A DNA stretch of 64,000 bases, taken from positions 133,057-197,056 of the forward strand of contig JAWKHS010000007.1 in assembly GCA_041394705.1 (NCBI GenBank), in the 5' to 3' direction. Under the pieces are notes generated by a model, which was given only the letters and a program-made list of their open reading frames with translations, had not been told where the DNA came from and did no database searches. The stretch comes from Vicinamibacterales bacterium (lineage in GTDB: Bacteria > Acidobacteriota > Vicinamibacteria > Vicinamibacterales > UBA2999). This document shows positions 16,325-63,958 of this stretch, piece after piece (position 1 is the stretch's first letter; each line of letters starts with the position of its first letter). The translations under genes and the position numbers were made by a program.

Positions 16325-16329
16325 GGGAT

Positions 16330-37946: not shown

Positions 37947-39017
37947 ATGCTTTCGGCAGCCGCGGAACCGCAACTGATTGGGGACAGTCCCGCCGTCAAC
38001 GACCTGCGCATCGACATCGAGCGCACGGCGCGTTCGGATGCGAAGGTGCTCATCACGGGTGAGAGCGGCGTCGGCAAGGAGCTGGTGGCGCGGGCCGTCC
38101 ACGCCCATTCGGCTCGCGCGGCCCGGCCGTTCGTGGCCGTCAACTGCGCCGGCCTCCCGGAGACCCTGCTCGAATCCGAGCTGTTCGGTCATGTGAAGGG
38201 CAGTTTCACGGGGGCGTACCGCGACAAGCAGGGCAAGCTCGAGATGGCCGATGGCGGGACCCTCTTCCTCGACGAAGTCGGGGAAATGACCCTGCGGATG
38301 CAGGGGCTGCTGCTGCGCTTCCTCGAGACGGGCGAACTGCAGAAGGTGGGGGCCGACCGGTCCAAGGCCACGGTGAACATCCGCGTCATTGCGGCCACGA
38401 ATCGGAACCTTCGCGAGCTGATCGCCCAGCAGGCGTTCCGGGAGGACCTCTACTACCGGCTCAACGTCATCCATCTCGTGGTGCCGCCTCTTCGGGAGCG
38501 CCGCGGCGACATCCCGGAACTCGTGGAGCGCTTCGTGCAAAGAAGTACGGCGAGCGGCCACTACGTGCTCCGGTCGGTGTCCCCGGAAGCCATGGAGGCC
38601 CTCACGAAGTACTCATGGCCCGGGAACGTCCGCGAGTTGCAGAACCTCGTCGAGCGCCTGGCCGTCACCTGCCAGCGCGAGGTGGCGATGCCGGACGATC
38701 TGCCTCCCGAGGTGCGGCTGCTGCCCGTGGGCGCCTACCGGCCGCGCCGCGAACGGCGGCGGACGGTGTCCGACGAGCTCTACCAGAAGCTCGTGGATAC
38801 CGGCGAATCGTTCTGGACCCTCGTCTATCCTCTGTACATGCAGCGCGAGATCACGCGCGGCAACTTGCGCGACCTGGTCCGGAAGGGGCTCCAGGAGGCG
38901 CGCGGCAACTATCGGATCGTCGTGCGACTCTTCAACATGGCTCCGACCGACTACAAGCGCTTCCTCAACTTCCTGCGCACGCACGAGTGCCAGGTTTCGT
39001 TCAAGGAGTTCAGGTGA
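37947..39017 (+). CDS. Sigma54-dependent transcriptional activator consisting only of AAA+ and C-terminal DNA-binding regions (no receiver/GAF/PAS domain)
   Basis: Only 8 residues precede LIGDSPAVNDL. ITGESGVGKELVA, GHVKGSFTGA (GAFTGA variant), GTLFLDEVGEM, KVGADRS. The track ORF start at 37698 lies in sequence without coding-type GC3 bias and upstream of the promoter candidate. Confidence 0.85.
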   Translation: MLSAAAEPQLIGDSPAVNDLRIDIERTARSDAKVLITGESGVGKELVARAVHAHSARAARPFVAVNCAGLPETLLESELFGHVKGSFTGAYRDKQGKLEMADGGTLFLDEVGEMTLRMQGLLLRFLETGELQKVGADRSKATVNIRVIAATNRNLRELIAQQAFREDLYYRLNVIHLVVPPLRERRGDIPELVERFVQRSTASGHYVLRSVSPEAMEALTKYSWPGNVRELQNLVERLAVTCQREVAMPDDLPPEVRLLPVGAYRPRRERRRTVSDELYQKLVDTGESFWTLVYPLYMQREITRGNLRDLVRKGLQEARGNYRIVVRLFNMAPTDYKRFLNFLRTHECQVSFKEFR

Positions 39018-39646
39018 AGGCGCCACTCTCGCTCGCACTCGCGCTGCTCGTGTCGTCCACCCTTGGCGTGCAGGCGCGCCAGGCCACCACTCCCCAGCCG
39101 CCTCCCGCCGCACGCCAGGCTGCACAGCCCACACCCGGGACGGCGAAGGGCGTGGACGCGCCGCCCGACTACGTGATCGGCCCCGACGACGTGCTGGACG
39201 TGATCGTCTGGCGCGAGAAGGAGCTGTCCACCGACGTCAAGGTCAGGCCCGACGGCAAGGTCTCCCTGCCCCTGCTGAACGACGTCCAGGCGGCGGGCCT
39301 GACGCCCGAGGAGTTCCGGCTGGCGCTCACCGAGGCCGCGGCCAAGTTCGTGGAAGATCCGAGCGTCACCGTCATCGTCAAGCAGATCAACAGCCGCATG
39401 GTGTTCGTGATGGGCGAGGTGGTGAAGCCCGGCACCTACCCGCTCACGGCGCCGACCACGGTGCTGCAGATGCTGGCGCTGGCCGGCGGTCCGACCACCT
39501 ACGCGAAGCTGGACGAGATCGGCGTCGTGCGGACCGTGGGCGGCAAGACGACGCGGCACCTGTTCAACTACAAGGACGTCACCCGCGGCCGCAAGATGGA
39601 GCAGAACATCGTGCTCCGGCCTGGCGACACGGTCATCGTTCCATGA
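39014..39646 (+). CDS. Polysaccharide export protein (Wza-like Poly_export + SLBB; PEP-CTERM-locus type)
   Basis: Real gene is the 3' part of track ORF 38615..39646. Signal peptide VKAPLSLALALLVSSTLGVQA. YVIGPDDVLDVIVWREKELSTDVKVRPDGKVSLPLLNDVQAAGLTPEEF; GEVVKPGTYPL. GTG overlaps the upstream stop (GTGA). Confidence 0.85.
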   Translation: MKAPLSLALALLVSSTLGVQARQATTPQPPPAARQAAQPTPGTAKGVDAPPDYVIGPDDVLDVIVWREKELSTDVKVRPDGKVSLPLLNDVQAAGLTPEEFRLALTEAAAKFVEDPSVTVIVKQINSRMVFVMGEVVKPGTYPLTAPTTVLQMLALAGGPTTYAKLDEIGVVRTVGGKTTRHLFNYKDVTRGRKMEQNIVLRPGDTVIVP

Positions 39647-40914
39647 CGCCGTCCTCGCGCCTTGCGCCGATCGTGGCGCTGGGGTTCTGCCTGGTCGCGG
39701 CGGCCGCCTCGGCGCAGCCGCGGTTCCCGGCGCCGGGCCGCGCCGCCCGCGGCCCCCGCTTCAGCGCCAACGTCTTCGGCGGCTGGGACGCGCCACTCTT
39801 CGACCCGAGCCCCGGGGCCTCGTTCAGGCCGCAGAGCCAGTGGTTCACGGGCGCCAACGTGAACGTCACCCTTCGAAAGTCGTGGCGGCGCTATTCGATG
39901 GCGACCCAGGCGAACATGTCGAACCGCTACTACCCGAAGTTCACGCCGTCGTACGCGCCCTCCTACGGGGCCGCGATCTCGTTCTCGTCGAACTACCGGG
40001 GACGGTGGCAGTGGGGGCTCGCGCAGTTCGCCCACTACGCGCCGTTCACGGCGGCCAGCCTCTTCGCGACGGCGCTCGATTCGAACGGACAGCTCCTGCA
40101 GCTGACGAGCGCCACCGACTTCCAGCAATCCACGATCCGCCAGGTGGACTCCAACACGACCGGCACGCTGTCGTACGCCCTGTCGCGGCGGACCTCGATC
40201 GGGTTCACCGCCCTGGCCGGCACACTGATCCCCATCGACTCGCCGGTGGCCCGCGCGCTACGGCTCAACGGCAGCCTGCGGCTCTCGCGCGCGCTCACCA
40301 GGAACCTGACCGGGTATCTCAGCTACAGCGTGTCGCAGAACCGGGTGTCGAGCCAGGGCACCGCCGCCGCCACGAACTACACCGTGAGCGGGTTCGACTT
40401 CGGCATCGACTTCTCCAGGGGACTCCAGCTCACCCGGAGCACGACCCTGGGATTCCACACGGGCCTGGTCAACGTCCCCGAGACGAATGGGAAGGCGTAC
40501 CAGTTGACGGGGAGCGTCAGCCTCGATCGGGCCTTCCGGAACGGCTGGAATGCGAGCATCGCGGCGCTCAGGGATGCACGATTCGTCCAGACCTACCGCA
40601 ACGCCGTGGTGTTCTACGGAGTGTCCGCCTCGGCGGCCGGGCGGCTGGCCGGCTCCCTCGGCTCGATCTTCTCGGCGAACTACTCGTCGGGTACCATTAA
40701 TGCTGCCAACGCCGTGGGGTTCAACAACACATCGGCGTCGGTGATGCTGCGATACGACGTGAAGCGGACGGTCGGGACCTTCGTCCAATACTCGCTGTTC
40801 CGATCCGACGTGGACGCTTCGTTCCTGCTGCCGGGTCAACCGGCGGGTCGGTTCGGCCGGCACAGCATTCGCGGCGGACTTTCCTTCGGCCTGAGCCCCT
40901 TCAGCCGCCCATAG
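39643..40914 (+). CDS. Predicted beta-barrel outer-membrane protein of unknown function (EPS-locus associated)
   Basis: Signal peptide MTPSSRLAPIVALGFCLVAAAASAQ. Alternating hydrophobic beta-strand pattern throughout, rich in S/T/N/Y/G. ATGA overlap with the export gene. Confidence 0.6.
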   Translation: MTPSSRLAPIVALGFCLVAAAASAQPRFPAPGRAARGPRFSANVFGGWDAPLFDPSPGASFRPQSQWFTGANVNVTLRKSWRRYSMATQANMSNRYYPKFTPSYAPSYGAAISFSSNYRGRWQWGLAQFAHYAPFTAASLFATALDSNGQLLQLTSATDFQQSTIRQVDSNTTGTLSYALSRRTSIGFTALAGTLIPIDSPVARALRLNGSLRLSRALTRNLTGYLSYSVSQNRVSSQGTAAATNYTVSGFDFGIDFSRGLQLTRSTTLGFHTGLVNVPETNGKAYQLTGSVSLDRAFRNGWNASIAALRDARFVQTYRNAVVFYGVSASAAGRLAGSLGSIFSANYSSGTINAANAVGFNNTSASVMLRYDVKRTVGTFVQYSLFRSDVDASFLLPGQPAGRFGRHSIRGGLSFGLSPFSRP

Positions 40915-40931
40915 ACGACGGAGCGACAGAC

Positions 40932-42503
40932 ATGCTGCCCGGCAAGAGCTACACCATCGACGACGTCGCCCGCATCGCGTGGCGCGGCAAGTGGATCGTG
41001 CTGGCCCCGGCGATCCTCACCTCGCTGCTCGCCGCGACCTACCTGCGGTTCGTACCGGACGTCTACCGCGCCGAGACGACGATCCTGGTCGTGGCCCAGC
41101 GCGTGCCGAGCGACATCGTCCGGACCACGGTCACCACCAACGTGCAGGACCGGCTGCGCTCCATCTCGCAGCAGATCCTGAGCCGCACGAGGCTCGAGCC
41201 CATCGTGCTCGACCTGAACCTGTACCCCGACCTCCGGCAGAAGGCGCCGATGGAGGACGTCATCGCCTACATGCGCCGCGAGGTGGACGTCACGACCATC
41301 CGCGGCGACGCGTTCGTCGTGGGCTACAAGTCCGAGAATCCCGTCCTCGCGCAGCAGGTGGCCGAGCGCCTCGCCTCGCTCTTCATCGAGGAGAACCTGC
41401 GCGACCGCGAAGTGCAGGCGGAAGCCACCAGCCAGTTCCTCGAGTCGCAGCTCAACGACGCCAGGCAGAAGCTCATCGAGCACGAGAAGCGGCTCGAGGC
41501 GTTCCGGATCCGAAACGCCGGCCAGCTGCCGACGCAGGTCAACAGCAACTTCCAGGCCGTCCAGACGCTCAACATGCAGGCCCAGGGCCTGAGCGACTCG
41601 CTGGATCGCGATCGCGACCGGCGCGCGGTGGTGGAACGCGCGCTCACCGATTTGATGGCGGCCGCCAAGGTGGACCCGACGGACGGCACGACGGTGGCGC
41701 AGGGCGATACCGCGCCGCCTCCAGGCTCAGCGGCGGCGGAGCTGGCGACGGCCCGCGAGGCCCTGCGGGTCCTCAAGACCCGCCTGACGCCCGAACATCC
41801 AGACGTGGTCCGCGGCGAGCGCATCGTGGCGGAAGCCGAGCGCAAGGCGAAGGCCGAGCGCGAAGCGGCGGCTGCGGCCGCGGCTGCGGGGGGCTCGAGC
41901 AGGCCCACGGCCACGATGTCGCCCGCGGAGCGCCAGGCGCGAAGCTATCGCGACGAACTCGACACGCTGGCGAAGAACATCACGGCCAAGGAGGAGCAGC
42001 TGGCCAAGGTGCAGGGCCAGATCACGGAATACCGCGGCCGCATCGAGTCGGTGCCGTCGCTCGAATCCGAGCAGACCGAGCTGATGCGCGACTACACGAC
42101 GCTCCAGCAGACCTACCAGTCGCTGCTGGCCAAGCGCCAGGAGGCGCAGATCGCCTCCAACGTCGAGCGGCGCCAGATCGGCGAGCAGTTCCGGGTGCTG
42201 GACCCGGCGCGCCGTCCCGAGAAGCCCTATTCGCCGAACCGCCCGCTCATCCAGGCGATCGGCACCGTCCTGGGCATCGCCATCGGCGTCGGCATCATCG
42301 TCCTGATGGAGCTGCGCGACAAGACGCTGCACATGGAATCGGACGTGCTCCAGGCGCTCAACCTGCCGGTGCTGGCGACGGTCCCGCGCATGCGCAACCG
42401 CGTGGAGCGCAGGCGCCACCTGCGGCAGGTGCTGGGGCTCTCAGGCGCGGCCGTGGCGGGCATCGCCGTAGCGGTCGCCATCGCCTGGAGCTGGCTCCGG
42501 TAG
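40932..42503 (+). CDS. Polysaccharide chain-length determinant protein (Wzz/PCP family, PEP-CTERM-locus type)
   Basis: N-terminal TM (WIVLAPAILTSLLAATYL), long coiled-coil periplasmic region, proline-rich motif RVLDPARRPEKPYSPNR, and a C-terminal TM. Confidence 0.85.
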   Translation: MLPGKSYTIDDVARIAWRGKWIVLAPAILTSLLAATYLRFVPDVYRAETTILVVAQRVPSDIVRTTVTTNVQDRLRSISQQILSRTRLEPIVLDLNLYPDLRQKAPMEDVIAYMRREVDVTTIRGDAFVVGYKSENPVLAQQVAERLASLFIEENLRDREVQAEATSQFLESQLNDARQKLIEHEKRLEAFRIRNAGQLPTQVNSNFQAVQTLNMQAQGLSDSLDRDRDRRAVVERALTDLMAAAKVDPTDGTTVAQGDTAPPPGSAAAELATAREALRVLKTRLTPEHPDVVRGERIVAEAERKAKAEREAAAAAAAAGGSSRPTATMSPAERQARSYRDELDTLAKNITAKEEQLAKVQGQITEYRGRIESVPSLESEQTELMRDYTTLQQTYQSLLAKRQEAQIASNVERRQIGEQFRVLDPARRPEKPYSPNRPLIQAIGTVLGIAIGVGIIVLMELRDKTLHMESDVLQALNLPVLATVPRMRNRVERRRHLRQVLGLSGAAVAGIAVAVAIAWSWLR

Positions 42504-42512
42504 CCGGACGCC

Positions 42513-43565
42513 ATGTACCACGAGTTCTACGGGCTGACCGAACGGCCCTTCGACCTCACGCCCAACACGCGATACCTGTACCTCACGCCCATGCACCGCG
42601 AGGCGCTGGCGGCGGTGCAGTACGGCATCACGTCGCGGCGCGGGATCATCGTGGTCACGGGCGAGGCCGGCACCGGCAAGACGACCATCGTCCGCGCGGC
42701 GCTGCGCGCGCTACGCGGCGAGAACGTCCGTCAGACCTACCTCAACAACCCCGCGCTCACGCGCGACGAGTTCCTGCAGTTCCTGGGGAAGGCGTACCGG
42801 CTCGGGCCTGACGCGGCGGAGTCGAAGACGGACCTCCTGTCGAAGCTGACGGCCGCGCTCGCCCGCAACCACGCGCAGGGCCAGATCACGGCGATGGTCG
42901 TGGACGAGGCCCAGAGCCTGCCGCACGAGCTCCTGGAGGAGATCCGGCTGCTGGCCAACATCGAGACCTCCACCGCGAAGCTGCTCCAGGTGGTGCTGGT
43001 CGGGCAGCCGGAACTGGCCGACCGCCTGAACGATCCCTCGCTGCGGCAGCTCAAGCAGCGCGTCGCCATCCGCGCCACGCTCAAGCCGCTGGATCTGCGC
43101 GCCACGGCCGCCCTCATCGCCGGCCGCATCCGCGTGGCCGGCGGCAATCCTCCCGAGATCTTCACGCCTGCAGCCGTCGAGTTGGTCTACCGATACTCCG
43201 GAGGAGTGGCGCGGACCATCAACGTGATCTGCGACAACGCGCTGCTCAGCGGCTTTGCGGCCGATCAGAAGCCGGTCGGCCCCGCGCTCGTGGAGGAAGT
43301 GTGCAAGGACTTCGACCTGACGCCTCGCGAAGCGCGCGCGAAGGCCGCGGGCCGCTCCGGAGCGGCCGAGCCGCCCAGAGCCACGCTGGCCACGCGAGGG
43401 GCCGCCACGCCAGGCGCGGCGGCCACGGCCGCGGAGCCGGCGCCCCTCCGGCCGGCCGCCAGCAACGGCGCGACGGTGGCGGAGCCGCCCGACGACGGCA
43501 AGTCGCGAGACATGTTCACCACCTTCCGGCACCGGCGCTGGTTTCCGTTCGGTAAGAGGTCATGA
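42513..43565 (+). CDS. ExeA-like AAA ATPase (PEP-CTERM/XrtA system-associated ATPase type)
   Basis: YHEFYGLTERPFDLTPNTRYLYLTPMHREAL, Walker A VTGEAGTGKTT, Walker B MVVDEAQ, LLQVVLVGQPEL. Confidence 0.85.
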   Translation: MYHEFYGLTERPFDLTPNTRYLYLTPMHREALAAVQYGITSRRGIIVVTGEAGTGKTTIVRAALRALRGENVRQTYLNNPALTRDEFLQFLGKAYRLGPDAAESKTDLLSKLTAALARNHAQGQITAMVVDEAQSLPHELLEEIRLLANIETSTAKLLQVVLVGQPELADRLNDPSLRQLKQRVAIRATLKPLDLRATAALIAGRIRVAGGNPPEIFTPAAVELVYRYSGGVARTINVICDNALLSGFAADQKPVGPALVEEVCKDFDLTPREARAKAAGRSGAAEPPRATLATRGAATPGAAATAAEPAPLRPAASNGATVAEPPDDGKSRDMFTTFRHRRWFPFGKRS

Positions 43566-44419
43566 GTCGTTTCGGCAAGGCCATCGAGCGCGCCCACTCC
43601 GGCGCCCCCAGCACGACGTCGCCCGCCATGGCGCCCACCGAGGCGCCCGACGACGCCGTGTTCGACGCGGCGTGGGACGTCAAGGACGCCCCTCCTCCCC
43701 CGCCGCCGGACCGTCCCGCGAGGGCCGTTCCGCGGTCGCTCGACGTGCATCCCGCGCTGTCGGAGAAGGTCGCCACGCCCACCGGGGCACCGACGGTCGC
43801 GCTGGAGCAGTACCGCAAGCTCGCCGCCAAGCTCCACCAGTGGCAGCTCGATCACGACGGCAAGGTCGTGATGATGGTGAGCGCCGTCGCGGGCGAGGGC
43901 AAGACCCTCACGACCGTGAACCTCGCGCTCACGCTCAGCGGGTCGTACCAGAAGCGCGTGCTGGTGATCGACTGCGACCTCAGGCGACCCACGATTCACG
44001 GCGCGTTCCAGATCGCGGGATCTCCGGGCGTCGCGGACATCGTCGAGCGCAGCGAGATCCCCGTCGTGCGCATCACCGAGCGTCTGTCGGTGGTCCCCGC
44101 GGGCCGGGTGGACGGGGATCCCATGGGCATCCTGACCTCGAACGCGATGGCGGCGCTCCTCGAGCACGCCCGCCGCGAGTACGACTGGGTCCTGCTCGAC
44201 ACGGCGCCGCTCGCCGTGCTGCCGGACGCCAACCTGCTCGCCGACCACGTGGACGGTTCGGTGCTGGTCGTGTCGGCTGGAGCCACGGCGTTCGAGCTCG
44301 TGGACACGGCCATTCGGGTCATCGGCAAGGAGCGCGTGCTGGGCGTCGTGCTCAACGGCGTCGATCCGCGTGACATGAGCACGGCGAACTACCACGCGGA
44401 CTACTACGGGAGGCGGTAA
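43562..44419 (+). CDS. Exopolysaccharide tyrosine autokinase-like ATPase (CpsD/CapB type, separate from its Wzz-like partner)
   Basis: Walker A SAVAGEGKTLT, A' VLVIDCDLRRP, B WVLLDTAPL. Tyr-rich tail NYHADYYGRR. ATGA overlap with the ATPase gene. Confidence 0.8.
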   Translation: MSRFGKAIERAHSGAPSTTSPAMAPTEAPDDAVFDAAWDVKDAPPPPPPDRPARAVPRSLDVHPALSEKVATPTGAPTVALEQYRKLAAKLHQWQLDHDGKVVMMVSAVAGEGKTLTTVNLALTLSGSYQKRVLVIDCDLRRPTIHGAFQIAGSPGVADIVERSEIPVVRITERLSVVPAGRVDGDPMGILTSNAMAALLEHARREYDWVLLDTAPLAVLPDANLLADHVDGSVLVVSAGATAFELVDTAIRVIGKERVLGVVLNGVDPRDMSTANYHADYYGRR

Positions 44420-44439
44420 CCCCGCGTCGGGGACCGGGC

Positions 44440-45828
44440 ATGGCAGGCCAGCTGGGTACCAGGACTCCTATCCTGGCGCTGCTCGAGACGGTCTCGATCG
44501 TCCTGGCCGTGACGTTGGCCGCCGCGATCCGGCTCGGCCCGGAATCCGGCATGGCGGTGCTGACCACGCCTGACGGCCTGCTCAGGGCGGGCGTCGTCGC
44601 CGGGATCTGCCAGCTCTGCCTGTTCTTCGCGGACATGTACGACCTGCGGGTCGTGTCCGACCGCCGCGAGCTCTTCGTGCGGCTGCTCCGGGCGCTGGCC
44701 GCCACCACCATCATCCTGGCGGTCGTCTACTACTGGGCGCCGACGCTGATCGTCGGCCGCGGCGTGTTCCTGCTGACGACGGCCTTCATCATCATCGCCA
44801 TCCTCGTCACGCGGCTGCTGTTCGAGTGGGCGACCGCCCAGGTCCAGCCCGGTGAGCGGCTGCTGCTCATCGGCTCGACGCCGGCGGCGGTGGCGCTCGC
44901 CCAGGAGATCCACGAACGCCAGACCGAGCTCGGCGTGGAGATCGTGGGCTTCGTCGAGCCCGACGCCGCCCGGGTCGGCACCTCGCTCTTCAACCCGGGC
45001 GTCATCGGCACCATCGACGACATCCCCCGGATCGTCCGCGAGCGCAGCGTGGACCGCGTGGTCGTCAGCCTCGCCGACGCCCGGGGACGCCTCGACATGG
45101 TCAAGCTGCTCGAGATCAAGCTGAGCGGCGTCACCTTCGACCACCTGGCGACGGTCTACGAGCAGTACACGGGCAAGATCGCCGTCGAGAACCTGCGTCC
45201 GAGCTGGATGATCTTCTCGGAAGGCTTCCGGAAGTCGCGGTCGCAGCTCGTGACGAAGCGGCTCCTCGACATCCTGGTCTCGTCGCTCGGCCTCGTGCTG
45301 GCGGCGCCGATCGCGGCGGTCGTGATGCTCCTCATCAAAGTGACGTCACACGGCCCGGTGTTCTACCGCCAGGAACGCGTCGGCCAGGACGGACGCACGT
45401 TCATGGTCCTGAAGTTCCGCTCGATGCGCGTGGACGCCGAGGAGGGCACCGGCCCGGTCTGGGCCACGAAGAACGACTCGCGCGTGACCCCGATCGGCGG
45501 CTTCCTGCGCCGCACGCGGCTCGACGAGATTCCGCAGCTGTGGAACGCGCTCCGCGGCGACATGAGCATGGTGGGCCCGCGTCCGGAACGTCCCGAGTTC
45601 GTCGCGGATCTCACGCGCCAGATCCCGTTCTACGGGCAGCGCCACGTGGTGAAGCCCGGCGTCACCGGCTGGGCGCAGGTGCGCTACACCTACGGCGCCA
45701 GCGTCGAGGACGCGCTCCAGAAGCTGCAGTACGACCTGTACTACATCAAGAACATGTCGGTGGCGCTCGACATCTTCGTCATGTTCCAGACGGTGAAGAC
45801 GGTCGTCATGCGCCGGGGGGCGTCGTGA
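44440..45828 (+). CDS. Polyprenyl-phosphate glycosyl-1-phosphate transferase (bacterial sugar transferase, priming enzyme)
   Basis: N-terminal TM helices. C-terminal KRLLDILVSSLGLVLAAP...VFYRQERVGQDGRTFMVLKFRSM...DEIPQLWNALRGDMSMVGPRPERPEF...KPGVTGWAQV. Confidence 0.9.
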   Translation: MAGQLGTRTPILALLETVSIVLAVTLAAAIRLGPESGMAVLTTPDGLLRAGVVAGICQLCLFFADMYDLRVVSDRRELFVRLLRALAATTIILAVVYYWAPTLIVGRGVFLLTTAFIIIAILVTRLLFEWATAQVQPGERLLLIGSTPAAVALAQEIHERQTELGVEIVGFVEPDAARVGTSLFNPGVIGTIDDIPRIVRERSVDRVVVSLADARGRLDMVKLLEIKLSGVTFDHLATVYEQYTGKIAVENLRPSWMIFSEGFRKSRSQLVTKRLLDILVSSLGLVLAAPIAAVVMLLIKVTSHGPVFYRQERVGQDGRTFMVLKFRSMRVDAEEGTGPVWATKNDSRVTPIGGFLRRTRLDEIPQLWNALRGDMSMVGPRPERPEFVADLTRQIPFYGQRHVVKPGVTGWAQVRYTYGASVEDALQKLQYDLYYIKNMSVALDIFVMFQTVKTVVMRRGAS

Positions 45829-46727
45829 GCGCGCCCGGCGCCGGCGCGCCGCCGCGGAACGCGATGACCGTCGACGTGGAGGACTACTTCCACGTCAGCA
45901 ACTTCGAGCGGGTGGTCGACCGCTCGTCGTGGGCGTCGCGCGAGAGCCGCGTCGAGGCCAACACCGAGCGCCTGCTGGCGCTCTTCCGCGAGGCGGGGGT
46001 CTCGGCGACGTTCTTCGTCCTGGCCTGGGTGGCCGAGCGCGTGCCCGGCCTGGTGCGCCGCATCGCCGCCGAGGGGCACGAAGTGGCCTCGCACGGCTAC
46101 GGCCACCGCCTGATCTACGACCAGACGCCTGACGCCTTCCGCGACGACGTCCGCCGCGCCAAGGGCCTGCTCGAGGACGCCTCGGGGCAGCGGGTGGACG
46201 GCTACCGGGCGCCGAGTTTCTCGGTGACCGCGCGCTCGCTGTGGGCGCTCGACGTCCTCATCGACGAGGGCTATACGTACGACTCGAGCATCTTCCCCGT
46301 GCATCACGATCGCTACGGCATTCCCGACGCCGAGCGGCACGCGGGCGTGGTGAGCCGCCCGGGCGGCACGATCGTGGAGGTGCCGGCGTCCACGGTGCGG
46401 CTGGCGGGCGTCAACTGGCCGATTGGCGGCGGCGGATACTTCCGGCTGCTGCCCTACGGATGGACGCGGTGGGGCATGCGGAGGGTGAACGACCTCGAGC
46501 GCGCGCCCGCCGTGTTCTACCTCCATCCGTGGGAGATCGATCCGGACCAGCCGCGGCTGGAGGCTCCGGCGCTGGCGCGCTACCGCCACTACCACAACCT
46601 GGACGACACCGAGCCGCGCCTCCGGCGCCTGCTCCAGGAGTTCCCGTTCGGCACCATGCGAGGTCTCATCGCGTCCGTGCCCCTGCCGCCCATCACGCTC
46701 GGTACGGCGGCGACCGGCGCGAGGTGA
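45825..46727 (+). CDS. Polysaccharide deacetylase (CE4-like; PEP-CTERM-locus subfamily type)
   Basis: Real gene is the 3' part of track ORF 45540..46727. MTVDVEDYFHV, ATFFVLAWVAERVPGLVRRIAAEGHEVASHGYGH, FYLHPWEIDPDQP. The GTG at 45825 overlaps the upstream stop (GTGA); ATG 45864 is an alternative. Confidence 0.85.
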   Translation: MSAPGAGAPPRNAMTVDVEDYFHVSNFERVVDRSSWASRESRVEANTERLLALFREAGVSATFFVLAWVAERVPGLVRRIAAEGHEVASHGYGHRLIYDQTPDAFRDDVRRAKGLLEDASGQRVDGYRAPSFSVTARSLWALDVLIDEGYTYDSSIFPVHHDRYGIPDAERHAGVVSRPGGTIVEVPASTVRLAGVNWPIGGGGYFRLLPYGWTRWGMRRVNDLERAPAVFYLHPWEIDPDQPRLEAPALARYRHYHNLDDTEPRLRRLLQEFPFGTMRGLIASVPLPPITLGTAATGAR

Positions 46728-46731
46728 GGGT

Positions 46732-55705: not shown

Positions 55706-57051
55706 GCGATGGCTTGGCGGCGGGGTCTCGGCACGACGGCCGCGACCCGGTCGGCGGCGACGGGCACCGGTTTCAGGGCGTCGACGTCCTTGCGGTACAG
55801 GCGGTGGAGGATCGCGACGACGAAGAACGTGAGCCAGGTGAGCTCGTTGTTGGCCGAGGCGATGAACGTGCCGCCGATGATGAACGCGAACATCGACGCC
55901 ATGAACGCGTTCGCCATGGTGATGTAGAACTTGCGGTCGTCCTCGCTGAGCCCCGCCAGGCTCGCGGCGCCGTACCGGACGCGCAGGCACAGGACGAACG
56001 CGTAGATGAACATCACGATCCAGATCGCGAAGCCCGCGTACCCCATCTCCGCGAGCACTTCGAGGTGGCTGTTGTGCACCGAGCGGTGCGAACCCCAGTA
56101 ACCAGCCGAGTCGTCGTGGTCGTCATACGCGTCGTCGAAGCGGCGCAACCCGACGCCGTAGGGATTGCGGGCCACCATCACCGTCGCGATGTGCCAGAAG
56201 TGGAACCGGCTGAGCGCCGATCCCTCGCCCACCTCCTCGTAGGTCTGGATCGTCTGCATGCGGTCCAGGTACCCCTGCGGCAAGGGCACGACCGTGAACA
56301 TCAGCGCGCCCGCGAGCACCATCCCGCCGGTCCACAGGAACGGCCGGCGTTGCAGCATGCCGGCGCTGAGGACGAGGGACCCGAGCGACAGCAGCCCCGC
56401 GCGCGACATCGTGCCGATCACGGTCATGATGCTGAACGGGATGCACAGGAGGAAGCTGTATCGGAGGTATTTCAGGTACGGCACGTCCACCTGCAGCGCG
56501 AGTGCGGTGGCCGCCATCAGCGGGATGGCCATGTTGACGGCCATCGCGTAGCCGTTGTTGTCGATGAAGGCGCCGGCCTGCCCCGCCGAGAACTGCACGC
56601 CGCCGTCGATGTAGTAGAAGAGCCCGGCCTTCGCCGCGAAGAACGCGAACGACCCGGCCATCACCGCGACCACCTGGCTCAGCTTCTTCTTCGAGTCCAC
56701 GAGGTTCACGGCGAGCATGCAGACCACGAGCAGTCGGATGAACTGGTCCACCCAGCCGAAGCTCGACTGCAGGTAGGACGTGAAGTGCGCGACGAGCACC
56801 GTGCCCAGGAACGACAGGCTCAGGAGGCTCATCGGGTTGGTGACGTTCGGCATCCAGCCGGTGAAGATGCACGGCACGAGGAAGAGCAGGCCCGCGACGA
56901 GCGACAAGCGGAACGAGCGCATGTCCCACCACATCCACTCCAGCGGCCTGAAGAGGGCGAACCAGATGTAGGTGAGCAGCCCGATCTGGCGGCTGACGAC
57001 CGAGCCGGCGAAGCCGAGGGCGATGATGGCGAGGACGAGGATGGAGCGCAT
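55702..57051 (-). CDS. O-antigen ligase/polymerase-like (Wzy_C) polytopic membrane protein
   Basis: About 10-12 hydrophobic helices. A central loop follows MSRAGLLSLGSLVL. A periplasmic loop contains SHRSVHNSHLEVLAEMG. Confidence 0.8.
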   Translation of the reverse strand: MRSILVLAIIALGFAGSVVSRQIGLLTYIWFALFRPLEWMWWDMRSFRLSLVAGLLFLVPCIFTGWMPNVTNPMSLLSLSFLGTVLVAHFTSYLQSSFGWVDQFIRLLVVCMLAVNLVDSKKKLSQVVAVMAGSFAFFAAKAGLFYYIDGGVQFSAGQAGAFIDNNGYAMAVNMAIPLMAATALALQVDVPYLKYLRYSFLLCIPFSIMTVIGTMSRAGLLSLGSLVLSAGMLQRRPFLWTGGMVLAGALMFTVVPLPQGYLDRMQTIQTYEEVGEGSALSRFHFWHIATVMVARNPYGVGLRRFDDAYDDHDDSAGYWGSHRSVHNSHLEVLAEMGYAGFAIWIVMFIYAFVLCLRVRYGAASLAGLSEDDRKFYITMANAFMASMFAFIIGGTFIASANNELTWLTFFVVAILHRLYRKDVDALKPVPVAADRVAAVVPRPRRQAIA

Positions 57052-57142: not shown

Positions 57143-59695
57143 TCAGCGGAGCAGGAAGGCGACGACGAGTCCGGCCAGGAGGGCGGCGCCCACGGCGGCC
57201 GCCGTCTTCAACCGGCGGACGACCGTGAGCTTCTGCGGGCGGAAGCGCACGGGCGGGGGCCACGCCGCGGCTGGCAGGGGGTGGACTGGCGCCCCGGCGG
57301 TGACGCGCTCGAACCACGGGCGGGCGAAGCCGTACTGGAGGAGCAGCACCAGCGGGCGTGTGCGCGTCCTCGTGGGCGACGACGCCAGGGTCGCAAGCGA
57401 CCGGTGGTGGAAGTACCGGGCCCGCTCGAGGAACCGCGACCGTTCTGCCTCGCTCGGCGCGTGGTAGGCGGCCAGATCGAACACCTCGGACTTCCGCAGG
57501 TCCTGCGCGGCCCAGGTCTCGGTGGGGAACTCCAGGACCTCTGGCTTGTCGAGGTAGCAGTACTCGTGGTCCGCCATCCACCGGGCGTAGTGCAGCAGGC
57601 TGGCCCTGGCGTACGCGTAGCGCCCGTCGTCGGGCGCGTGGGTCCACAGGTAGCGCCCCAGGGCTTGCAGGAACACGGTGTAGGACCATCGCCGCTCGAC
57701 GTCCAGGAGCTCGAGCGCCGCGATGTCGTCGTCGGGATGGATCACGCGCCGCAGCAGCTCGTCGGCCTTCGCCGGCAGCGCCGGATCCGCGCTCAGGCGG
57801 TGGGCGTTGAACAGGGCCGCCATCGCGTTGGCCGGACCGCGCCCGGGCCCGTGGTACTCCGGCGACACCGTGGCGCTCGCGCCTCCGGTCGCGGACCGCG
57901 CGAGCCACGGCAGCGGCCACCTGGCGAGCCGGCCGTCGTCCATCGCGACGACCCAGTCCCCGAGGCTGACGACCGCCGCGCGGCTCAGCGGGTCTCCGGT
58001 CAGCAGGTGGTGCAGCAGCAGGCCGTGCGAATAGCAGTGCTCGTTGGACGGCCCGCCGCCGTGAAGGCCAGCGCCGCGCGGGTAGCACCGATGCGTGGAC
58101 TTCCCGGCATCCACGTAGTGGCCCGTGTGCCAGAAGGTCCCGCCGTTGTAGGCCGCGCGGTCGGCGCTGGTCCAATAGACGTCGACGCGGGCCACGTGCC
58201 AGGCCAGGTCCGACGCCATCTCCCACCAGCGGTGATCGTCGTGGCGAAGCGCCTGCAGCGTCAGGCCGAGCACCGCGTCGTACTGGTTGTTGTAATGCGA
58301 GACGCGCTGCAGGGCCGGGTCGTCGCCGTTCTCGTGATCGGCGTACAGGTCGCCGAAGTGCCGCCAGCCGTACTCGTCGATGCGTTCCCGCTTCGCCGCG
58401 AAGCCGTCGGCGCCGTCCAGCGCGGCCGCGATCAGGCCCTCGTACACCGCGAGGGCGCCGGCCGGGCCGGCCGGGGCCGGCTCGAGCGCCGGCAGGGCTT
58501 CCGCGGCCGCCACCGCCTCGATCGCCGGGAGCACCGTCGACGGCCGCCGTTGCCACGACGCCCCGTCGGCGCCGTGGGCGGCGTCCGCGTCGAGCCACCA
58601 CTCGAAGTGGCAACGCTCGCCGCCCTGCAGCTCGTGGAGGCGGTCCCCCGGGGGCAGGCTCCACACGCGCAGCCGCCCGGCAGCGTCGGCGTCAATCGCC
58701 TTCGGGAAGAGTTGCCAGAACCGTCGGGCCGTGACGCCCAGGCGACCCGCCTCGTGTTCGATCGCCAGCCACGGATGCGCGCGGCTCCCGGACGTTCGCT
58801 GGCCGTTGGCATCGAGCACGAAGCCCGGCCCATCCACGGCGACGACACCGTCCCGATCGACGTGGACGCGGCTCTGCCAGTGCTCGCCGCCGCTCCCCTG
58901 CTGCGTCACCGCCAGCGGCACGGCGACGGGGTGGACCGGCTCACCGTCGGCGAGCGAGAGGTGCGCGCGGACGGCCGCGCCTGGGGCCGCACAGCTCACG
59001 CCGGCCCCACGCAGCTGCAGTGACCCCGGATCGCCCAGCTCCCAGAAGCCCCCGTCGTGCACGGCCGCCCGCGGATTGTGCAGGCCCAGGTCGATGCCGA
59101 TCGCCGTGCTTCCCGCGAGGACCGTCACCCGGACATCGACGTTCACGATGGCGCCGTCGCCCAACTTCGCTCGGCCGGACGCGCGGGTCACCACGCGAAG
59201 CGCCGTGTGGTGCTCCACCGCGAGGGCCGAGAAGACGACCGGGAGGGAGCGGCCCCCGGCGTCGATCAGGTGGACGGCGTCGGCGCCGAAGCGCGCCGCG
59301 CACCGTCCGTCCGCGTCGAGCCGCGCCACCAGGCCGGCGTGATCCAGATCGAGCACGATACGAAGCCGCGCGGTGGAGATCGCGATGGACCGCGGCCCCG
59401 CGACGACGTCCAGCATCGGCGCGGCCGGTCGCGCGACGTCGGCGCGGACGTCGAGCACGAGTCCGCCGGCGGGGACCACGGCCTCGACGTCGAGCCACGC
59501 CCAGCGCACGCTGCCGTCGGGCCACCGTTCGGCGACGCGCGCGCCCGTCGGCAGCGGACCGCCCGCGATCGCGACGAGGCGGTCCACGTCGGTGACGCGG
59601 CCGCGCGCGAAGGGCACGCCGAAGGAAAGGGGCTCGGCGCGCTCGTGGAGGGCCGGCGATCGGACGGTCACCCGGGCCACGGAAGCGGACGTCAT
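57143..59695 (-). CDS. Large (~850-aa) uncharacterised protein with a single C-terminal TM anchor; possible beta-sandwich N-half and alpha/alpha-toroid-like C-half
   Basis: No N-terminal signal peptide. The last 25 residues, RRLKTAAAVGAALLAGLVVAFLLR, form a TM preceded by basic residues. Trp/His-rich C-half (HYNNQYD, WWEMASDLAWHVARVDVYW, FWHTGHY, HCYSHGLLLHHLLTGD). ATG 59695; GTG 59710 is an alternative. Confidence 0.7.
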   Translation of the reverse strand: MTSASVARVTVRSPALHERAEPLSFGVPFARGRVTDVDRLVAIAGGPLPTGARVAERWPDGSVRWAWLDVEAVVPAGGLVLDVRADVARPAAPMLDVVAGPRSIAISTARLRIVLDLDHAGLVARLDADGRCAARFGADAVHLIDAGGRSLPVVFSALAVEHHTALRVVTRASGRAKLGDGAIVNVDVRVTVLAGSTAIGIDLGLHNPRAAVHDGGFWELGDPGSLQLRGAGVSCAAPGAAVRAHLSLADGEPVHPVAVPLAVTQQGSGGEHWQSRVHVDRDGVVAVDGPGFVLDANGQRTSGSRAHPWLAIEHEAGRLGVTARRFWQLFPKAIDADAAGRLRVWSLPPGDRLHELQGGERCHFEWWLDADAAHGADGASWQRRPSTVLPAIEAVAAAEALPALEPAPAGPAGALAVYEGLIAAALDGADGFAAKRERIDEYGWRHFGDLYADHENGDDPALQRVSHYNNQYDAVLGLTLQALRHDDHRWWEMASDLAWHVARVDVYWTSADRAAYNGGTFWHTGHYVDAGKSTHRCYPRGAGLHGGGPSNEHCYSHGLLLHHLLTGDPLSRAAVVSLGDWVVAMDDGRLARWPLPWLARSATGGASATVSPEYHGPGRGPANAMAALFNAHRLSADPALPAKADELLRRVIHPDDDIAALELLDVERRWSYTVFLQALGRYLWTHAPDDGRYAYARASLLHYARWMADHEYCYLDKPEVLEFPTETWAAQDLRKSEVFDLAAYHAPSEAERSRFLERARYFHHRSLATLASSPTRTRTRPLVLLLQYGFARPWFERVTAGAPVHPLPAAAWPPPVRFRPQKLTVVRRLKTAAAVGAALLAGLVVAFLLR

Positions 59696-59989
59696 GACCA
59701 GAGACTCCACGGGACGCCCGCTCCCCCTGGCGCGCCGGCGTCGTCGGCGCGGCTGCCGGCGCCCTGGCGTACTCGATGCACGACCAGGTCGCGGACCGGC
59801 GGCGATGCGGTGAGGACTGAAGGCACGGGCTTCTGAAGGGACGCGGCGTCGGGTCTCGGGTCCGCGCGCGTGCGCCCGTGAAGCGCGGCGGCGGCCGTGC
59901 CGGCGCGCGCAGCGACGCGCGACGACGCGCGCTCGAACGGGCCCGCTCGGGGCGTTAGATTAACATAGGGATCCACTCACCCAGCTTCG

Positions 59990-61003
59990 ATGTCACGTGC
60001 GCTCGACCTAGCCCCACTCGAGCAGGCCGATCCCGCCGTCATCGCGTTCGTCATCCCGGTCCGCGACGACGCCGAGCGCCTGCGGACGTGCCTGCGCAGT
60101 CTTCGCGAGATCGCGATGGCCACGCCTCATGACGTGCTCGTCCTCGATCACGGGTCGATCGACCAGTCGGCCGCCGTCGCGGAGGCCGCGGGTGCGCGCG
60201 TGATGACGCGCCGGGGCGGAAACGTGGCCGGGCTGCGCAATCTGGGAGCGGCCAGCACCACCGCGCCGCTCATCGCCTTCATCGACGCCGACAACGAGGT
60301 GGCAGCCGGCTGGCTGGGCTCGGCGCTCGGCGCGTTCAAGGCCGCCTCGGTCGGCATCGCGGGCGCGCCGTATTTCGCGCCTCCGCAGGGCACGTGGGTT
60401 CAGCGCACCTACGACGCCTTGCGCCGGCATCCCTCCACGGACGGTCCCACCGAGTGGCTCGGCGCCGGCAACATGGTCATTCGCCGGCAGGCCTTCGACG
60501 CGGCCGGCGGCTTCGACGAGCGCCTCGAGACCTGCGAAGACGTCGACCTCTGCGTGCGCGTCGCGGGCGCCGGGTGGGACGTGCGCGTGGTCCCGGGGAT
60601 GAAGAGCGTGCACCACGGCGATCCCGCGCGTCTCTCGCACGTGTTCTGGGGCGAGCTGTGGCGCGGGCGCGACAACCTGCGCGTGACGCTTCGCGGCCCC
60701 CGATCGTTCCGGACGCTGGCCTCGGCCGCGATGCCCGTCGCGTACGCCGGCGCCGTGGTGGCCTCGCTCGCCGGCTGGCTGGCGCCCTGGCCCGCGGGCG
60801 CCGCCATCGCGGGAACGGGCCTGGTGGGGCTCCTGTCCCTCCTGACCCTCAGGGTGTCGACGATGCGCAGGAACGCCGGCGGACGCCTGCCGGCAGGACT
60901 GTGGGCGGCCGTGCAGGTGGCCCTGGCCTACGACCTCGGGCGGGCCGCCGCGGTGTTCGTGGGCGTGGGCCACGGCCGCCGCCGCGAGGCCGCGTCGAAG
61001 TGA
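59990..61003 (+). CDS. Glycosyltransferase family 2 with C-terminal membrane segments
   Basis: IAFVIPVRDDAERL, LDHGSIDQS, AFIDADNEV (DxD), GAGNMVIRR, CEDVDLCVR. C-terminal hydrophobic helices. Confidence 0.85.
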   Translation: MSRALDLAPLEQADPAVIAFVIPVRDDAERLRTCLRSLREIAMATPHDVLVLDHGSIDQSAAVAEAAGARVMTRRGGNVAGLRNLGAASTTAPLIAFIDADNEVAAGWLGSALGAFKAASVGIAGAPYFAPPQGTWVQRTYDALRRHPSTDGPTEWLGAGNMVIRRQAFDAAGGFDERLETCEDVDLCVRVAGAGWDVRVVPGMKSVHHGDPARLSHVFWGELWRGRDNLRVTLRGPRSFRTLASAAMPVAYAGAVVASLAGWLAPWPAGAAIAGTGLVGLLSLLTLRVSTMRRNAGGRLPAGLWAAVQVALAYDLGRAAAVFVGVGHGRRREAASK

Positions 61004-62175
61004 CGGCCCCCCGCGCCGCGTCCGGCGATCGCATCCGGGTCCTCGAACTCCGCAGCGTCCGCGGCACGGGCGGCGGTCCCGAGAAGACGATCCTCCTCGG
61101 CACCGCCCTGACCGACGCGTCGCGCTTCGACGTCACGGTCTGCTACATCCGCGACACCAGGGACGGTGTCTTCGCCATCGACGAGTGGTCGCGGTCGCTG
61201 GGCATCCCGTACATCGAGATCCCCGAGCGCCACTCGCTCGATCCCGCGGTCGTGCCCGCGCTGCGGCGCGTGATCCGCGAACGCCGCATCGACATCGTCC
61301 ACGCGCACGAGTACAAGACGGATTTCCTCGCCCTGATCGCGGCACGGCTGGAGGGCATCGTCCCGCTCTCGACGGCGCACGGCTGGACGGGCCACTCCAG
61401 GCGCGAGCTGTCGTTCTACTACCCGGCCGATCGCTGGCTGCTCGCGCGCTATCCCCGCGTCATCGCCGTCTCGGAGCAGATCCGCCAGGTGCTCATCGCC
61501 GCGGGTGCGCGGCCCGAGCGCGTGACCACGGTGCTCAACTCGATCGACCCCGGCGCCTTCAGGCGGGACGCCGCGCTCGAGCCGCAGGTGCGCGCCGAGC
61601 TCGGGCTGCCCGCCGACGCCGTCGTCCTCGGCGCGGTGGGCCGGGCCGAGCCGCAGAAGCGCTTCGACCTGCTCATCGACGTCTTCGCCCGCCTGGCCCG
61701 GTCGCGGCCGACGCTCCACCTCGTCATTGCGGGCGAGGGGTCGCGGCTGGCGGACCTGCGCCGCCAGGTCGCGGGGCTCGGCGACGGCGGCGCCCGGGTG
61801 CATCTCCTGGGCCATCGGACCGACATACCGAGAGTGCACCACGCCTTCGACGTCTTCGTGCAGTCGTCCGACTACGAAGGGACGCCGAATGCCGTGCTGG
61901 AGGCCATGGCGCTCGGCTCGCCCGTCGTGGCGACGAAGGCCGGGGGCACCGAGGAGATCGCGTTCGACGGCGTGCACGGGCGCCTCGTCGCCTGCGGCGA
62001 CGCGCAGGGCCTCGAGTCGGCCATCGCCGAGCTGTGCGACCATCCGGAGAGGGCGCGGCAGCTGGCGGCGGCCGCACGGGCGCGCGTGGAGACCGACCTG
62101 GCCTTCGCCACGCGCGTCGCCAAGGTCGAACGCATCTACGAGGAGCTGATGGCCGAGTCGAGGAGCCGCGCGTGA
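61000..62175 (+). CDS. Glycosyltransferase family 4 (GT-B)
   Basis: Real gene is the 3' part of track ORF 60394..62175. IRVLELRSVRGTGGGPEKTIL, SSDYEGTPNAVLEAMALGSPVVATKAGGTEEI. GTG 61000 overlaps the GT2 stop (GTGA). Confidence 0.85.
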   Translation: MTAPRAASGDRIRVLELRSVRGTGGGPEKTILLGTALTDASRFDVTVCYIRDTRDGVFAIDEWSRSLGIPYIEIPERHSLDPAVVPALRRVIRERRIDIVHAHEYKTDFLALIAARLEGIVPLSTAHGWTGHSRRELSFYYPADRWLLARYPRVIAVSEQIRQVLIAAGARPERVTTVLNSIDPGAFRRDAALEPQVRAELGLPADAVVLGAVGRAEPQKRFDLLIDVFARLARSRPTLHLVIAGEGSRLADLRRQVAGLGDGGARVHLLGHRTDIPRVHHAFDVFVQSSDYEGTPNAVLEAMALGSPVVATKAGGTEEIAFDGVHGRLVACGDAQGLESAIAELCDHPERARQLAAAARARVETDLAFATRVAKVERIYEELMAESRSRA

Positions 62176-62774
62176 GCGCTGCCGGTGCCGTCAAGGCCGT
62201 GGCACGGTCGCTCGCCCTGGTCGCCGTCTCGCCGATGGTCGGGACCTACCCCGTGCGCGCGCGGCTCATGGGGCGCGACCGCGCCTTCCAGGCGTCGTGC
62301 GAGTGGCTGTCGGTGATCCCGGGGTTCGTCGGCCAGTACGCGCGGCGGGCGTTCCTGACCGCCACCACCGCCGGCTGCGGCCCCGACGTGGTCGTCGGGA
62401 TGGGCTGCAAGATGGCCTCGGCCGACGTGCGCCTCGACGCCAACGCCTACATCGGTCCGGACTGCAACCTCGGCTGGGTGCACGTCGAGAAGGACGTCAT
62501 GCTGGCTGCCGGCGTGCAGATCCCGAGCGGGCCGCACACCCACGGCACCGAGAGACTCGACGTGCCGATGCGGGACCAGCCCGGCCGGCACGTGTGCGTG
62601 CACGTGCGGGAGGGGGCCTGGGTCGGCAACGGGGCGATCGTGCTCGCCGACGTGGGTCGCCACGCGATCGTGGCGGCGGGCGCCGTGGTGATCGAGCCCG
62701 TTCCGGACTTCGCGGTCGTGGGCGGCGTCCCGGCGCGGCTGCTGAAGTCCCGCCTGGATGGGACGCAACCGTGA
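62172..62774 (+). CDS. Left-handed beta-helix (hexapeptide-repeat) acyl/acetyltransferase
   Basis: Real gene is the 3' part of track ORF 61185..62774. Hexapeptide-like turns (VVGMGCKMASADVRLDANAYIGPDCNLG, VREGAWVGNGAIVLADVGRHAIVAAGAVV) and PDFAVVGGVPARLL. GTG 62172 overlaps the upstream stop (GTGA). Confidence 0.8.
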   Translation: MSAAGAVKAVARSLALVAVSPMVGTYPVRARLMGRDRAFQASCEWLSVIPGFVGQYARRAFLTATTAGCGPDVVVGMGCKMASADVRLDANAYIGPDCNLGWVHVEKDVMLAAGVQIPSGPHTHGTERLDVPMRDQPGRHVCVHVREGAWVGNGAIVLADVGRHAIVAAGAVVIEPVPDFAVVGGVPARLLKSRLDGTQP

Positions 62775-63958
62775 GGGTGCTCTACCTCACGCACCGGTTG
62801 CCCTACGCGCCGAACCGCGGCGATCGGATCCGGTCGTTCCACTTCGTCGAGGGCCTCCGGGCGGCGATGGACGTCGGCATCGTGTCCCTCGTTCACGATG
62901 ACGTCGAAGCCGCCGCCGTACCGCAGGTGGCCGACCGGGGCGTGGACGTCACGGTGGCGCGCGTCGCGGGCCTCAGCCGGTGGCTCCGCGCCACCGTCGC
63001 GCTGGCGGGGCCGGACCCGCTCACCCACCACCTGCTCACGGCGCCGACGATTCACCAGGCCGTGGAGAGCGCGGTGGCGCGGGCACGACCCGACGTGGTG
63101 CTCGCGATGTGCAGCAGCATGGCGCAGTTCGCGCTGCGCCCGCCGCTCGACCGCTATCCGCTCGTGCTCGACATGGTGGACGTCGACTCGGAGAAGTGGC
63201 GGAGCCTCGGCGCGGTCTCGCGGCCGCCGAAGTCGTGGGTCTACCGCCGCGAGGCCCGGGTGCTGTCGGCGTTCGAGCGCGTGGCGACCGAGCGCGCGGT
63301 GACCACGCTCGTCGTGAACGAGAAGGAGAGCGACGCGCTGAAGGCCCTGGCCCCGGACTCCGACATCCGCGTGATCTCGATGGGGGTGGACATCGACGCG
63401 TTCACGCCGATGGACCCCCCCGGCAACTCGGCCACGGTGGTCTTCTGCGGCGTGATGAACTACCCGCCGAACGAGTCCGGCGCGCTGTGGCTCGTTCGCG
63501 AGGTCTGGCCGCTCGTCCTGCAGCGGCGGCCCGACGCGCGGCTGGAAATCGTGGGCAGTCAGCCCACGGCCGCGGTGCGGGCCCTGGCCCGCCCCGGCAT
63601 CGTCGTGACCGGGCTCGTGCCGCACACCCGCGACTACCTCTGGCGGGCGGCCGTGGCCGTCGCTCCCTTGCACACGGCGCGAGGCCTGCAGAACAAGGTG
63701 TTCGAGGCGATGGCCGCCGGCGTGCCGGTCGTCGTGACGGCGGCCGTCCACGCGGGGCTGCCGCCGGGCGTGCGCCAGGCGTGCGAGGTGGCCGACTCGG
63801 CCCCCGACTACGCGGACCGGATCCTGCGCTGGCTGGAGCGTTCGCCGGCGGAGCGCCGCGCCCACGCGATGGGGGTGGACCTGCGCCCGTGGTCCTGGGC
63901 CGGACCTCGAGGCGAGCTGGTGGACGTCATCACGGCCGCGGCCGCGACCCGGACGTAG
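62771..63958 (+). CDS. Glycosyltransferase (GT-B); resembles the stp1-type PEP-CTERM/EpsH1-associated sugar transferases
   Basis: Real gene is the 3' part of track ORF 62297..63958. RVLYLTHRLPYAPNRGDRIRSFHF, DMVDVDSEKW, VFCGVMNYPPNESG, GLQNKVFEAMAAGVPVV. GTG 62771 overlaps the upstream stop (GTGA). Confidence 0.85.
   Translation: MRVLYLTHRLPYAPNRGDRIRSFHFVEGLRAAMDVGIVSLVHDDVEAAAVPQVADRGVDVTVARVAGLSRWLRATVALAGPDPLTHHLLTAPTIHQAVESAVARARPDVVLAMCSSMAQFALRPPLDRYPLVLDMVDVDSEKWRSLGAVSRPPKSWVYRREARVLSAFERVATERAVTTLVVNEKESDALKALAPDSDIRVISMGVDIDAFTPMDPPGNSATVVFCGVMNYPPNESGALWLVREVWPLVLQRRPDARLEIVGSQPTAAVRALARPGIVVTGLVPHTRDYLWRAAVAVAPLHTARGLQNKVFEAMAAGVPVVVTAAVHAGLPPGVRQACEVADSAPDYADRILRWLERSPAERRAHAMGVDLRPWSWAGPRGELVDVITAAAATRT

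Follow-up and report, generated by a model that had tools for sequence, protein, structure and literature searches.

An XrtA/PEP-CTERM exopolysaccharide locus in a Vicinamibacterales genome with its sorting genes beyond the analysed window

Analysis of a 64,000-nucleotide stretch of a Vicinamibacterales genome (the window; G000:C7:133057-197056) and of the sequence following it indicated that the polysaccharide genes of the window very probably belong to a complete XrtA/PEP-CTERM exopolysaccharide system, arranged in four arms over about 34 kb (window 37.8 kb to window-equivalent 71.8 kb). A first-pass annotation had described these genes as an exosortase-A-type set without exosortase, EpsI or any PEP-CTERM substrate. 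None of the three is indeed present at 37947-63958 or anywhere else in the window; all three, contrary to that headline, are located within 4.7 kb of position 63958, and their apparent lack arose because the window ends at 64000. The locus is an ordinary, complete exosortase-A slime-polysaccharide cluster of a soil Acidobacteriota, the fourth arm of which is cut off by the window.

The genome comprises 6.25 Mb in 45 contigs and is 99.6% complete. Because the G+C content of the DNA is ~71%, gene calling relied on a codon-usage model that had learned from the long open reading frames (ORFs) of the same genome. The locus proteins were scanned with NCBIfam and Pfam profiles and judged against the curated cut-offs, and searches for exosortase, EpsI and PEP-CTERM sequences were carried out in six frames on the whole genome. 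Contig C7 runs on for 143,618 bases past the right edge of the window, and the arm found there is placed in window-equivalent coordinates (L005 position + 64000).

The whole-genome searches revealed exactly one exosortase (PF09721, 8.6e-78; C7:200075-200830, positions 2-251 of 254), exactly one EpsI/DUF3485 protein (4.1e-58; C7:199380-199985) and exactly one PEP-CTERM match above cut-off (C7:201056-201121). The three matches span C7:199380-201121, 2.3-4.1 kb beyond the window end. The first-pass annotation had offered two explanations of the missing genes, and that of an xrtA beyond the right edge proved correct: prsT-like, epsI, xrtA and PEP-CTERM genes occupy window-equivalent 64018-68635. 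Its proposal to look past 64000 for xrtA and epsI is thereby answered, both being found directly downstream, and the architecture is ordinary.

The last 42 bases of the window (63959-64000) are part of a 59-bp spacer separating stp1 from the convergent fourth arm. The four genes of this arm are all on the minus strand and are transcribed in the order PEP-CTERM gene (L005 3970-4635, window-equivalent 67970-68635), xrtA (L005 2947-3819, window-equivalent 66947-67819), epsI (L005 2312-2950, window-equivalent 66312-66950) and prsT-like gene (L005 18-2309, window-equivalent 64018-66309). A terminator-like hairpin with a 12-bp stem and a T run lies on the same strand between the substrate gene and xrtA (L005 3918-3945, window-equivalent 67918-67945), and the last 4 bp of xrtA also belong to epsI. 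XrtA scored 222.4 bits with TIGR03109 (cut-off 208) and EpsI 141.4 bits with TIGR02914 (cut-off 42.8), while the PrsT-like TPR protein reached 287 bits with TIGR02917 against a cut-off of 312.2, aligning to model positions 9-600 of 899. The exosortase carries in order the motifs CSG at residue 182, NGLR at 224 and HTFSG at 248; Cys-x-Gly, Asn-x-x-Arg and His-x-x-x-Gly are invariant in exosortases (Haft et al. 2006, PMC1569441). A crude hydropathy scan, with at least eight helices as the criterion, gave hydrophobic blocks over residues 5-273 that were merged, so that the helices were not countable.

Three methods agreed that the genome encodes exactly one PEP-CTERM protein, the 221-aa product of the gene next to xrtA (TIGR02595, 31.1 bits; cut-off 16). 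Its C-terminus consists of VPEPSTMLLLGTGLAAAAARRRKR followed by a short tail, and the sorting motif is VPEP (VPEPS). A loose regular expression for PEP-like tails, run on all six-frame ORFs, gave 16 matches, 15 of which were rejected on inspection as off-frame, devoid of a hydrophobic helix or devoid of a basic tail. The substrate family comprises at least 230 relatives, and the few named ones are annotated as PEP-CTERM or hypothetical proteins. In a structure model the mature part of the substrate is a beta-sandwich with a predicted local distance difference test (pLDDT) score of ~96 over residues 30-190; a Foldseek search of this model against the PDB gave no significant match and only generic beta-sandwich likenesses (best E 4.8e-3).

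The substrate gene is preceded by a sigma-54 promoter, TGGCACctcgcTTGCT (L005 4711-4726, window-equivalent 68711-68726, minus strand), which matches the consensus TGGCACN5TTGCW used for scoring with zero mismatches and is the sole perfect match in 18 kb. The likely start codon of the PEP-CTERM gene, a TTG, follows this TGGCAC-N5-TTGC site at a distance of 76 nt; the published average distance of such sites before PEP-CTERM genes is 71 nt (PMC1569441). Weaker sites, which are to be read as consensus matches only, were noted before the operon of the first arm (GG-N10-GC, CGGCCCCGTTCTTGCT, 37827-37842, plus strand, 2 mismatches, intergenic and 105 nt upstream of the activator/export operon), before the two paralog genes described below (52275-52290 with 1 mismatch and 49670-49685 with 3 mismatches) and before a receiver gene (window-equivalent 70896-70911). 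The genome also carries rpoN.

Each end of the locus harbors a gene for a sensor-less sigma-54 activator, and the two proteins are 54% identical. Activator 1 (356 amino acids, aa; 37947-39017, plus strand) shows a Sigma54_activat match (3.6e-68) with AAA+ core and lid but without a receiver domain, and the end of its gene overlaps the export gene by 4 bp; the first-pass annotation had taken the export protein as the first gene, a position that belongs to this activator instead. With the PrsR model TIGR02915 (cut-off 502.6) activator 1 scored 276.7 bits, aligned only from model position 136, and activator 2 scored 264 bits. Activator 2 (L005 5071-6144, window-equivalent 69071-70144, plus strand), identified by profile scans, is likewise without a receiver domain and is transcribed divergently from the substrate gene. 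Two receiver-domain genes, also identified by profile scans, come next (L005 6202-7754, window-equivalent 70202-71754, minus strand). The one adjoining activator 2 (L005 6202-6867, window-equivalent 70202-70867, minus strand) is the one behind the sigma-54-like site at 70896-70911 and encodes a protein of 221 aa, in which a receiver domain is combined with a C-terminus of weak PilZ likeness. It is kept at the same place in relatives and is a possible source of signals for the sensor-less activators.

Inside the window, gene calling and family scans showed that the gene set listed in the first-pass annotation is real and correctly located. Its three arms were reproduced at 37947-47787 (plus strand), 59710-52599 (minus strand) and 59990-63958 (plus strand), with the start of the minus-strand arm at 59710 rather than 59695. 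The functions assigned to the listed genes held, and to them must be added a GT2 and a second GT4 glycosyltransferase, a hexapeptide acetyltransferase and an 855-aa PcRGLX-like protein. The assignment to an XrtA/PEP-CTERM-type polysaccharide locus is supported by four genes that pass the cut-offs of XrtA-system families: TIGR03013, TIGR03006, TIGR03019 and TIGR03087. Seven further genes are below cut-off with an XrtA-system family still as best match (TIGR03027, 03007, 03015, 03018, 03108, 03088 and 03097).

The plus-strand first arm continues after activator 1 with a Wza-like polysaccharide export protein carrying Poly_export and SLBB domains (39014-39646; TIGR03027, 1.1e-43, 148.9 bits, below the cut-off of 180), an outer-membrane beta-barrel protein of a lineage-specific family (39643-40914), a chain-length determinant with Wzz and GNVR domains and without a kinase domain (40932-42503; TIGR03007, 4.2e-82, 276 bits against a cut-off of 278.85), an AAA_22 (ExeA-like) ATPase of the XrtA-system type (42513-43565; TIGR03015, 1.3e-73, 247.8 bits, below the cut-off of 324.5) and a separate BY-type tyrosine autokinase (43562-44419; TIGR03018, 1.1e-41; TIGR01007, 117 bits, above the cut-off of 108). 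The arm ends with the priming polyprenyl glycosylphosphotransferase EpsB_2 (44440-45828; TIGR03013, 473.8 bits, above the cut-off of 393.35), the XrtA-system polysaccharide deacetylase (45825-46727; TIGR03006, 412.1 bits, above the cut-off of 276.2) and a FemAB-family XrtA-system protein (46732-47787; TIGR03019, 392.5 bits, above the cut-off of 260.35).

The minus-strand arm encodes an AsnB-type amidotransferase (52599-54491; TIGR03108, 9.3e-183, 609 bits, below the cut-off of 817; TIGR01536 above its cut-off), a stp2-like GT4 glycosyltransferase (54584-55705; TIGR03088, 1.2e-69, 235 bits, below the cut-off of 409), a Wzy_C/O-antigen-ligase-like membrane protein that is a candidate polymerase or ligase (55702-57051; Wzy_C; TIGR03097, 1.7e-42, 146 bits, below the cut-off of 188) and the 855-aa protein (57143-59710), which has an N-terminal PcRGLX-like domain and a C-terminal membrane helix. 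PcRGLX-like domains are rhamnogalacturonan-lyase-like, and the same position of this gene is kept in relatives; the protein may be a polymer-processing enzyme. The third arm (59990-63958, plus strand) consists of four genes coding for the GT2 and GT4 glycosyltransferases, the hexapeptide acetyltransferase and stp1, the last with 321.5 bits against TIGR03087 (cut-off 316.65).

The barrel protein at 39643-40914 (plus strand, 31 homologs, 423 aa) gave no Pfam or NCBIfam match even at E = 10, and NCBIfam at E <= 10 gave nothing useful for the 423-aa, 588-aa and 855-aa proteins. Since no family matches it, the barrel was established by structure prediction. The AlphaFold model, with 28 homologs in the input, has a pLDDT of 74.8 and a predicted template modelling score (pTM) of 0.72, and comprises 18 long beta strands in addition to a signal helix; two short helices (residues 137-159) break the run of strands. 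Its top Foldseek matches are mostly outer-membrane barrels, e.g. porins, TonB-dependent receptors and FadL, in agreement with the earlier assignment as a beta-barrel outer-membrane protein.

Two paralogous secreted proteins of 588 and 790 aa are encoded on the minus strand between the first two arms (47812-52190; genes at 47812-49578 and 49818-52190), where the first-pass annotation had placed a paralog pair. They share an unassigned domain of ~380 aa (73% identity over 379 aa) and carry fn3 domains, and neither protein has a PEP-CTERM sorting tail. The longer paralog contains five Cys/Asp-rich repeats (acid_disulf_rpt/MopE-like). Directly upstream of the locus, at 34105-37566 on the plus strand, an extracytoplasmic-function sigma factor gene (Sigma70_ECF) is followed 7 nt later by a gene for a 960-aa Ser/Thr kinase with TPR repeats; sucA and sucB precede this pair.

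A mechanism can be proposed from the gene families. Synthesis of a lipid-linked repeat unit would begin with priming by EpsB_2, after which the stp1, stp2, GT4 and GT2 glycosyltransferases (four or five in all) would lengthen the unit; acetyltransferase, deacetylase, AsnB-type amidotransferase and FemAB-like transferase would modify it. The Wzy_C-like protein would polymerise or ligate the polymer, the split chain-length determinant and tyrosine kinase would set the chain length, and export would proceed via the Wza-like protein and the dedicated outer-membrane barrel. The single PEP-CTERM protein is predicted to leave the cytoplasm via Sec and to stay anchored through its C-terminal helix until XrtA (Cys-Arg-His), together with EpsI, cleaves it at VPEP and transfers it to an acceptor. 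By analogy with PepA of floc formers, it probably ties the polymer to the cells. Expression of the substrate gene, the paralog genes and the export operon would be under the control of the two paralogous activators, one of which is encoded at each end of the locus.

Among public genomes, Vicinamibacterales/Acidobacteriota metagenome-assembled genomes have the nearest exosortase loci, the best with 95% amino-acid identity. In eight close relatives the genes follow one another in the same order, namely FKBP, two receiver genes (RR2, RR1), activator 2, PEP-CTERM gene, xrtA, epsI and prsT; in seven of them stp1, the acetyltransferase and GT4 come next, and six of these seven reach the 855-aa protein. 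In the eighth the locus (L006) stops at a contig end inside prsT. The xrtA-epsI-prsT trio is widespread in Acidobacteriota and also occurs in Candidatus Competibacter. In ~25 of 79 related loci the end of a PEP-CTERM ORF lies immediately before xrtA.

One exosortase was detected in 10 of 19 genomes of the genus, this genome included, and about half of the species of the genus have the sorting cassette. The exosortase-bearing genomes carry one or two PEP-CTERM matches each, which indicates that a single substrate is a trait of the lineage (genus); the exception is G004, in which xrtA is at a contig end and no PEP-CTERM match was found. Three families elsewhere in the order gave 11-12 PEP-CTERM matches. 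A further congener (G003, 100% complete) has two PEP-CTERM matches (8e-7 and 1.4e-5) and neither an exosortase nor an XrtA-type FemAB; these matches may be orphan substrates or false positives. Congeners G007 (98% complete, 9 contigs) and G015 (99% complete) contain a divergent XrtA-type polysaccharide core (G007:C6:~3558000-3597000, L085-L088; G015:C174:~8800-19800, L089) composed of ATPase, export protein, chain-length determinant, kinase, priming transferase, deacetylase and FemAB, 36-62% identical to the products of the window genes, with FemAB scores of 339 and 299 bits, respectively, above cut-off. Two models detected no exosortase in either genome (the positive control was found), and no PEP-CTERM match was obtained. 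We tentatively suggest, as a possibility rather than an expectation, that the XrtA system of the genus is a one-enzyme, one-substrate gain-or-loss cassette (beta-sandwich PEP-CTERM protein, xrtA, epsI and prsT-like gene), switched by sensor-less sigma-54 activators, perhaps with a receiver/PilZ-like input, that replace PrsK/PrsR.

Several observations weigh against a canonical, complete XrtA system. The raw score of the exosortase is slightly higher with the XrtD model (238.7 bits) than with the XrtA model, and 7 of the 11 XrtA-system assignments score under the curated cut-offs. A search of the locus for a Polysacc_synt_3 (Wzx-type) flippase found none, other flippase families not having been searched; the nearest match in the genome is at C7:77843-78364, ~55 kb upstream of the window. 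PrsK (TIGR02916) is absent, the best match scoring 99 bits against a cut-off of 300 and covering the kinase core only, and neither local activator reaches the PrsR cut-off, the PrsR model having been scored on those two proteins and not genome-wide. The single substrate also compares with a published median of eight PEP-CTERM substrates per genome (PMC1569441); in Rhodospirillum rubrum one PEP-CTERM protein occurs together with EpsH/EpsI (PMC1569441).

The higher raw score raises the question of whether this could be an XrtD-type exosortase in split form, or one of another non-A type, since TIGR04152 is the top-scoring model on both the exosortase and EpsI (190.2 bits on the latter). Neither protein, however, reaches the TIGR04152 cut-off of 400, and the exosortase does exceed the cut-off for XrtA; the tail of the substrate is a classical VPEP and not VPLPA, and the four linked genes named above pass the cut-offs of XrtA-system families. 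A split XrtD was rejected on the missed cut-off and the VPEP motif, and a non-A enzyme of any kind is very improbable. It is scarcely conceivable that this lineage runs an XrtA-type polysaccharide pathway with no exosortase and no protein sorting, the other explanation given in the first-pass annotation. The sorting-free stretch 37947-63958 and the cores of G007 and G015 would fit such a pathway; the xrtA, epsI, prsT-like and PEP-CTERM genes start 60 bp past 63958 on the same contig, the catalytic motifs of the exosortase are intact and the gene order is kept in relatives. The adjoining sorting genes refute the explanation for this genome, and, since G007 and G015 have the core without exosortase or PEP-CTERM matches, it may hold for those sister species.

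The same cores could be taken to mean that the sorting module (PEP-CTERM gene, xrtA, epsI, prsT-like gene and activator 2) is a functionally separate cassette that does not act on the product of the neighbouring locus. The module forms a separate arm and has a promoter to itself, congeners have polysaccharide cores without it, and disruption of epsH in Methylobacillus left methanolan production unaffected (cited in PMC1569441). We consider this improbable nonetheless: the module adjoins the glycosyltransferase arm in every close relative but the one truncated inside prsT, the activators flanking the locus are paralogs, exosortase genes very rarely occur outside polysaccharide loci (PMC1569441), and the Aquincola PEP-CTERM protein shifts the polymer from soluble to bound (PMC9850573). 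A complete XrtA system that includes the polysaccharide genes is the reading retained.

Comparison with described XrtA/EpsI systems (PMC1569441) showed the same Cys, Arg and His motifs with a separate EpsI and TPR protein adjacent, a polysaccharide locus with priming transferase, deacetylase, FemAB, stp1/stp2, amidotransferase, ATPase, chain-length determinant and kinase, and a sigma-54 promoter ~70 nt before the PEP-CTERM gene; the single substrate recalls the 40-kb region of R. rubrum. Unlike those systems, the present one has an Acidobacteriota host, no PrsK and no local activator at the PrsR cut-off, two receiver-less activators flanking the locus instead, and a shorter PrsT-like protein (763 aa against the 899-position model) just under cut-off. 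A literature search for exosortases in Acidobacteria or Vicinamibacteria found no paper on them.

In the floc-forming clusters of Aquincola tertiaricarbonis and Zoogloea (PMC9850573), too, a TGGCAC-type -24/-12 promoter precedes a small PEP-CTERM gene, behind which come a stem-loop and then sorting or TPR genes, and a large polysaccharide cluster with epsB2 is linked; in Aquincola the RpoN-dependent pepA lies upstream of prsT, with the stem-loop after pepA. In contrast to those clusters, xrtA itself is downstream of the substrate gene here, and the match of the substrate to PepA is only weak (26.6 bits, the family cut-off being 80). With the XrtD/VPLPA-CTERM system (TIGR04152) it shares the top raw score on exosortase and EpsI; that system has a fusion protein where two separate proteins are encoded here, and VPLPA in place of VPEP.

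The apparent anomaly is gone once 5 kb past the window edge are read, and by itself this has little import beyond annotation. The analysis adds to the record of the little-studied Vicinamibacterales a complete XrtA system that has one substrate only and whose sigma-54 switch lacks PrsK and, among the local activators, any receiver-containing one of the PrsR type. Sister species have XrtA-type polysaccharide cores with and without the sorting cassette, and could offer a natural comparison for what exosortase sorting adds to the polymer.

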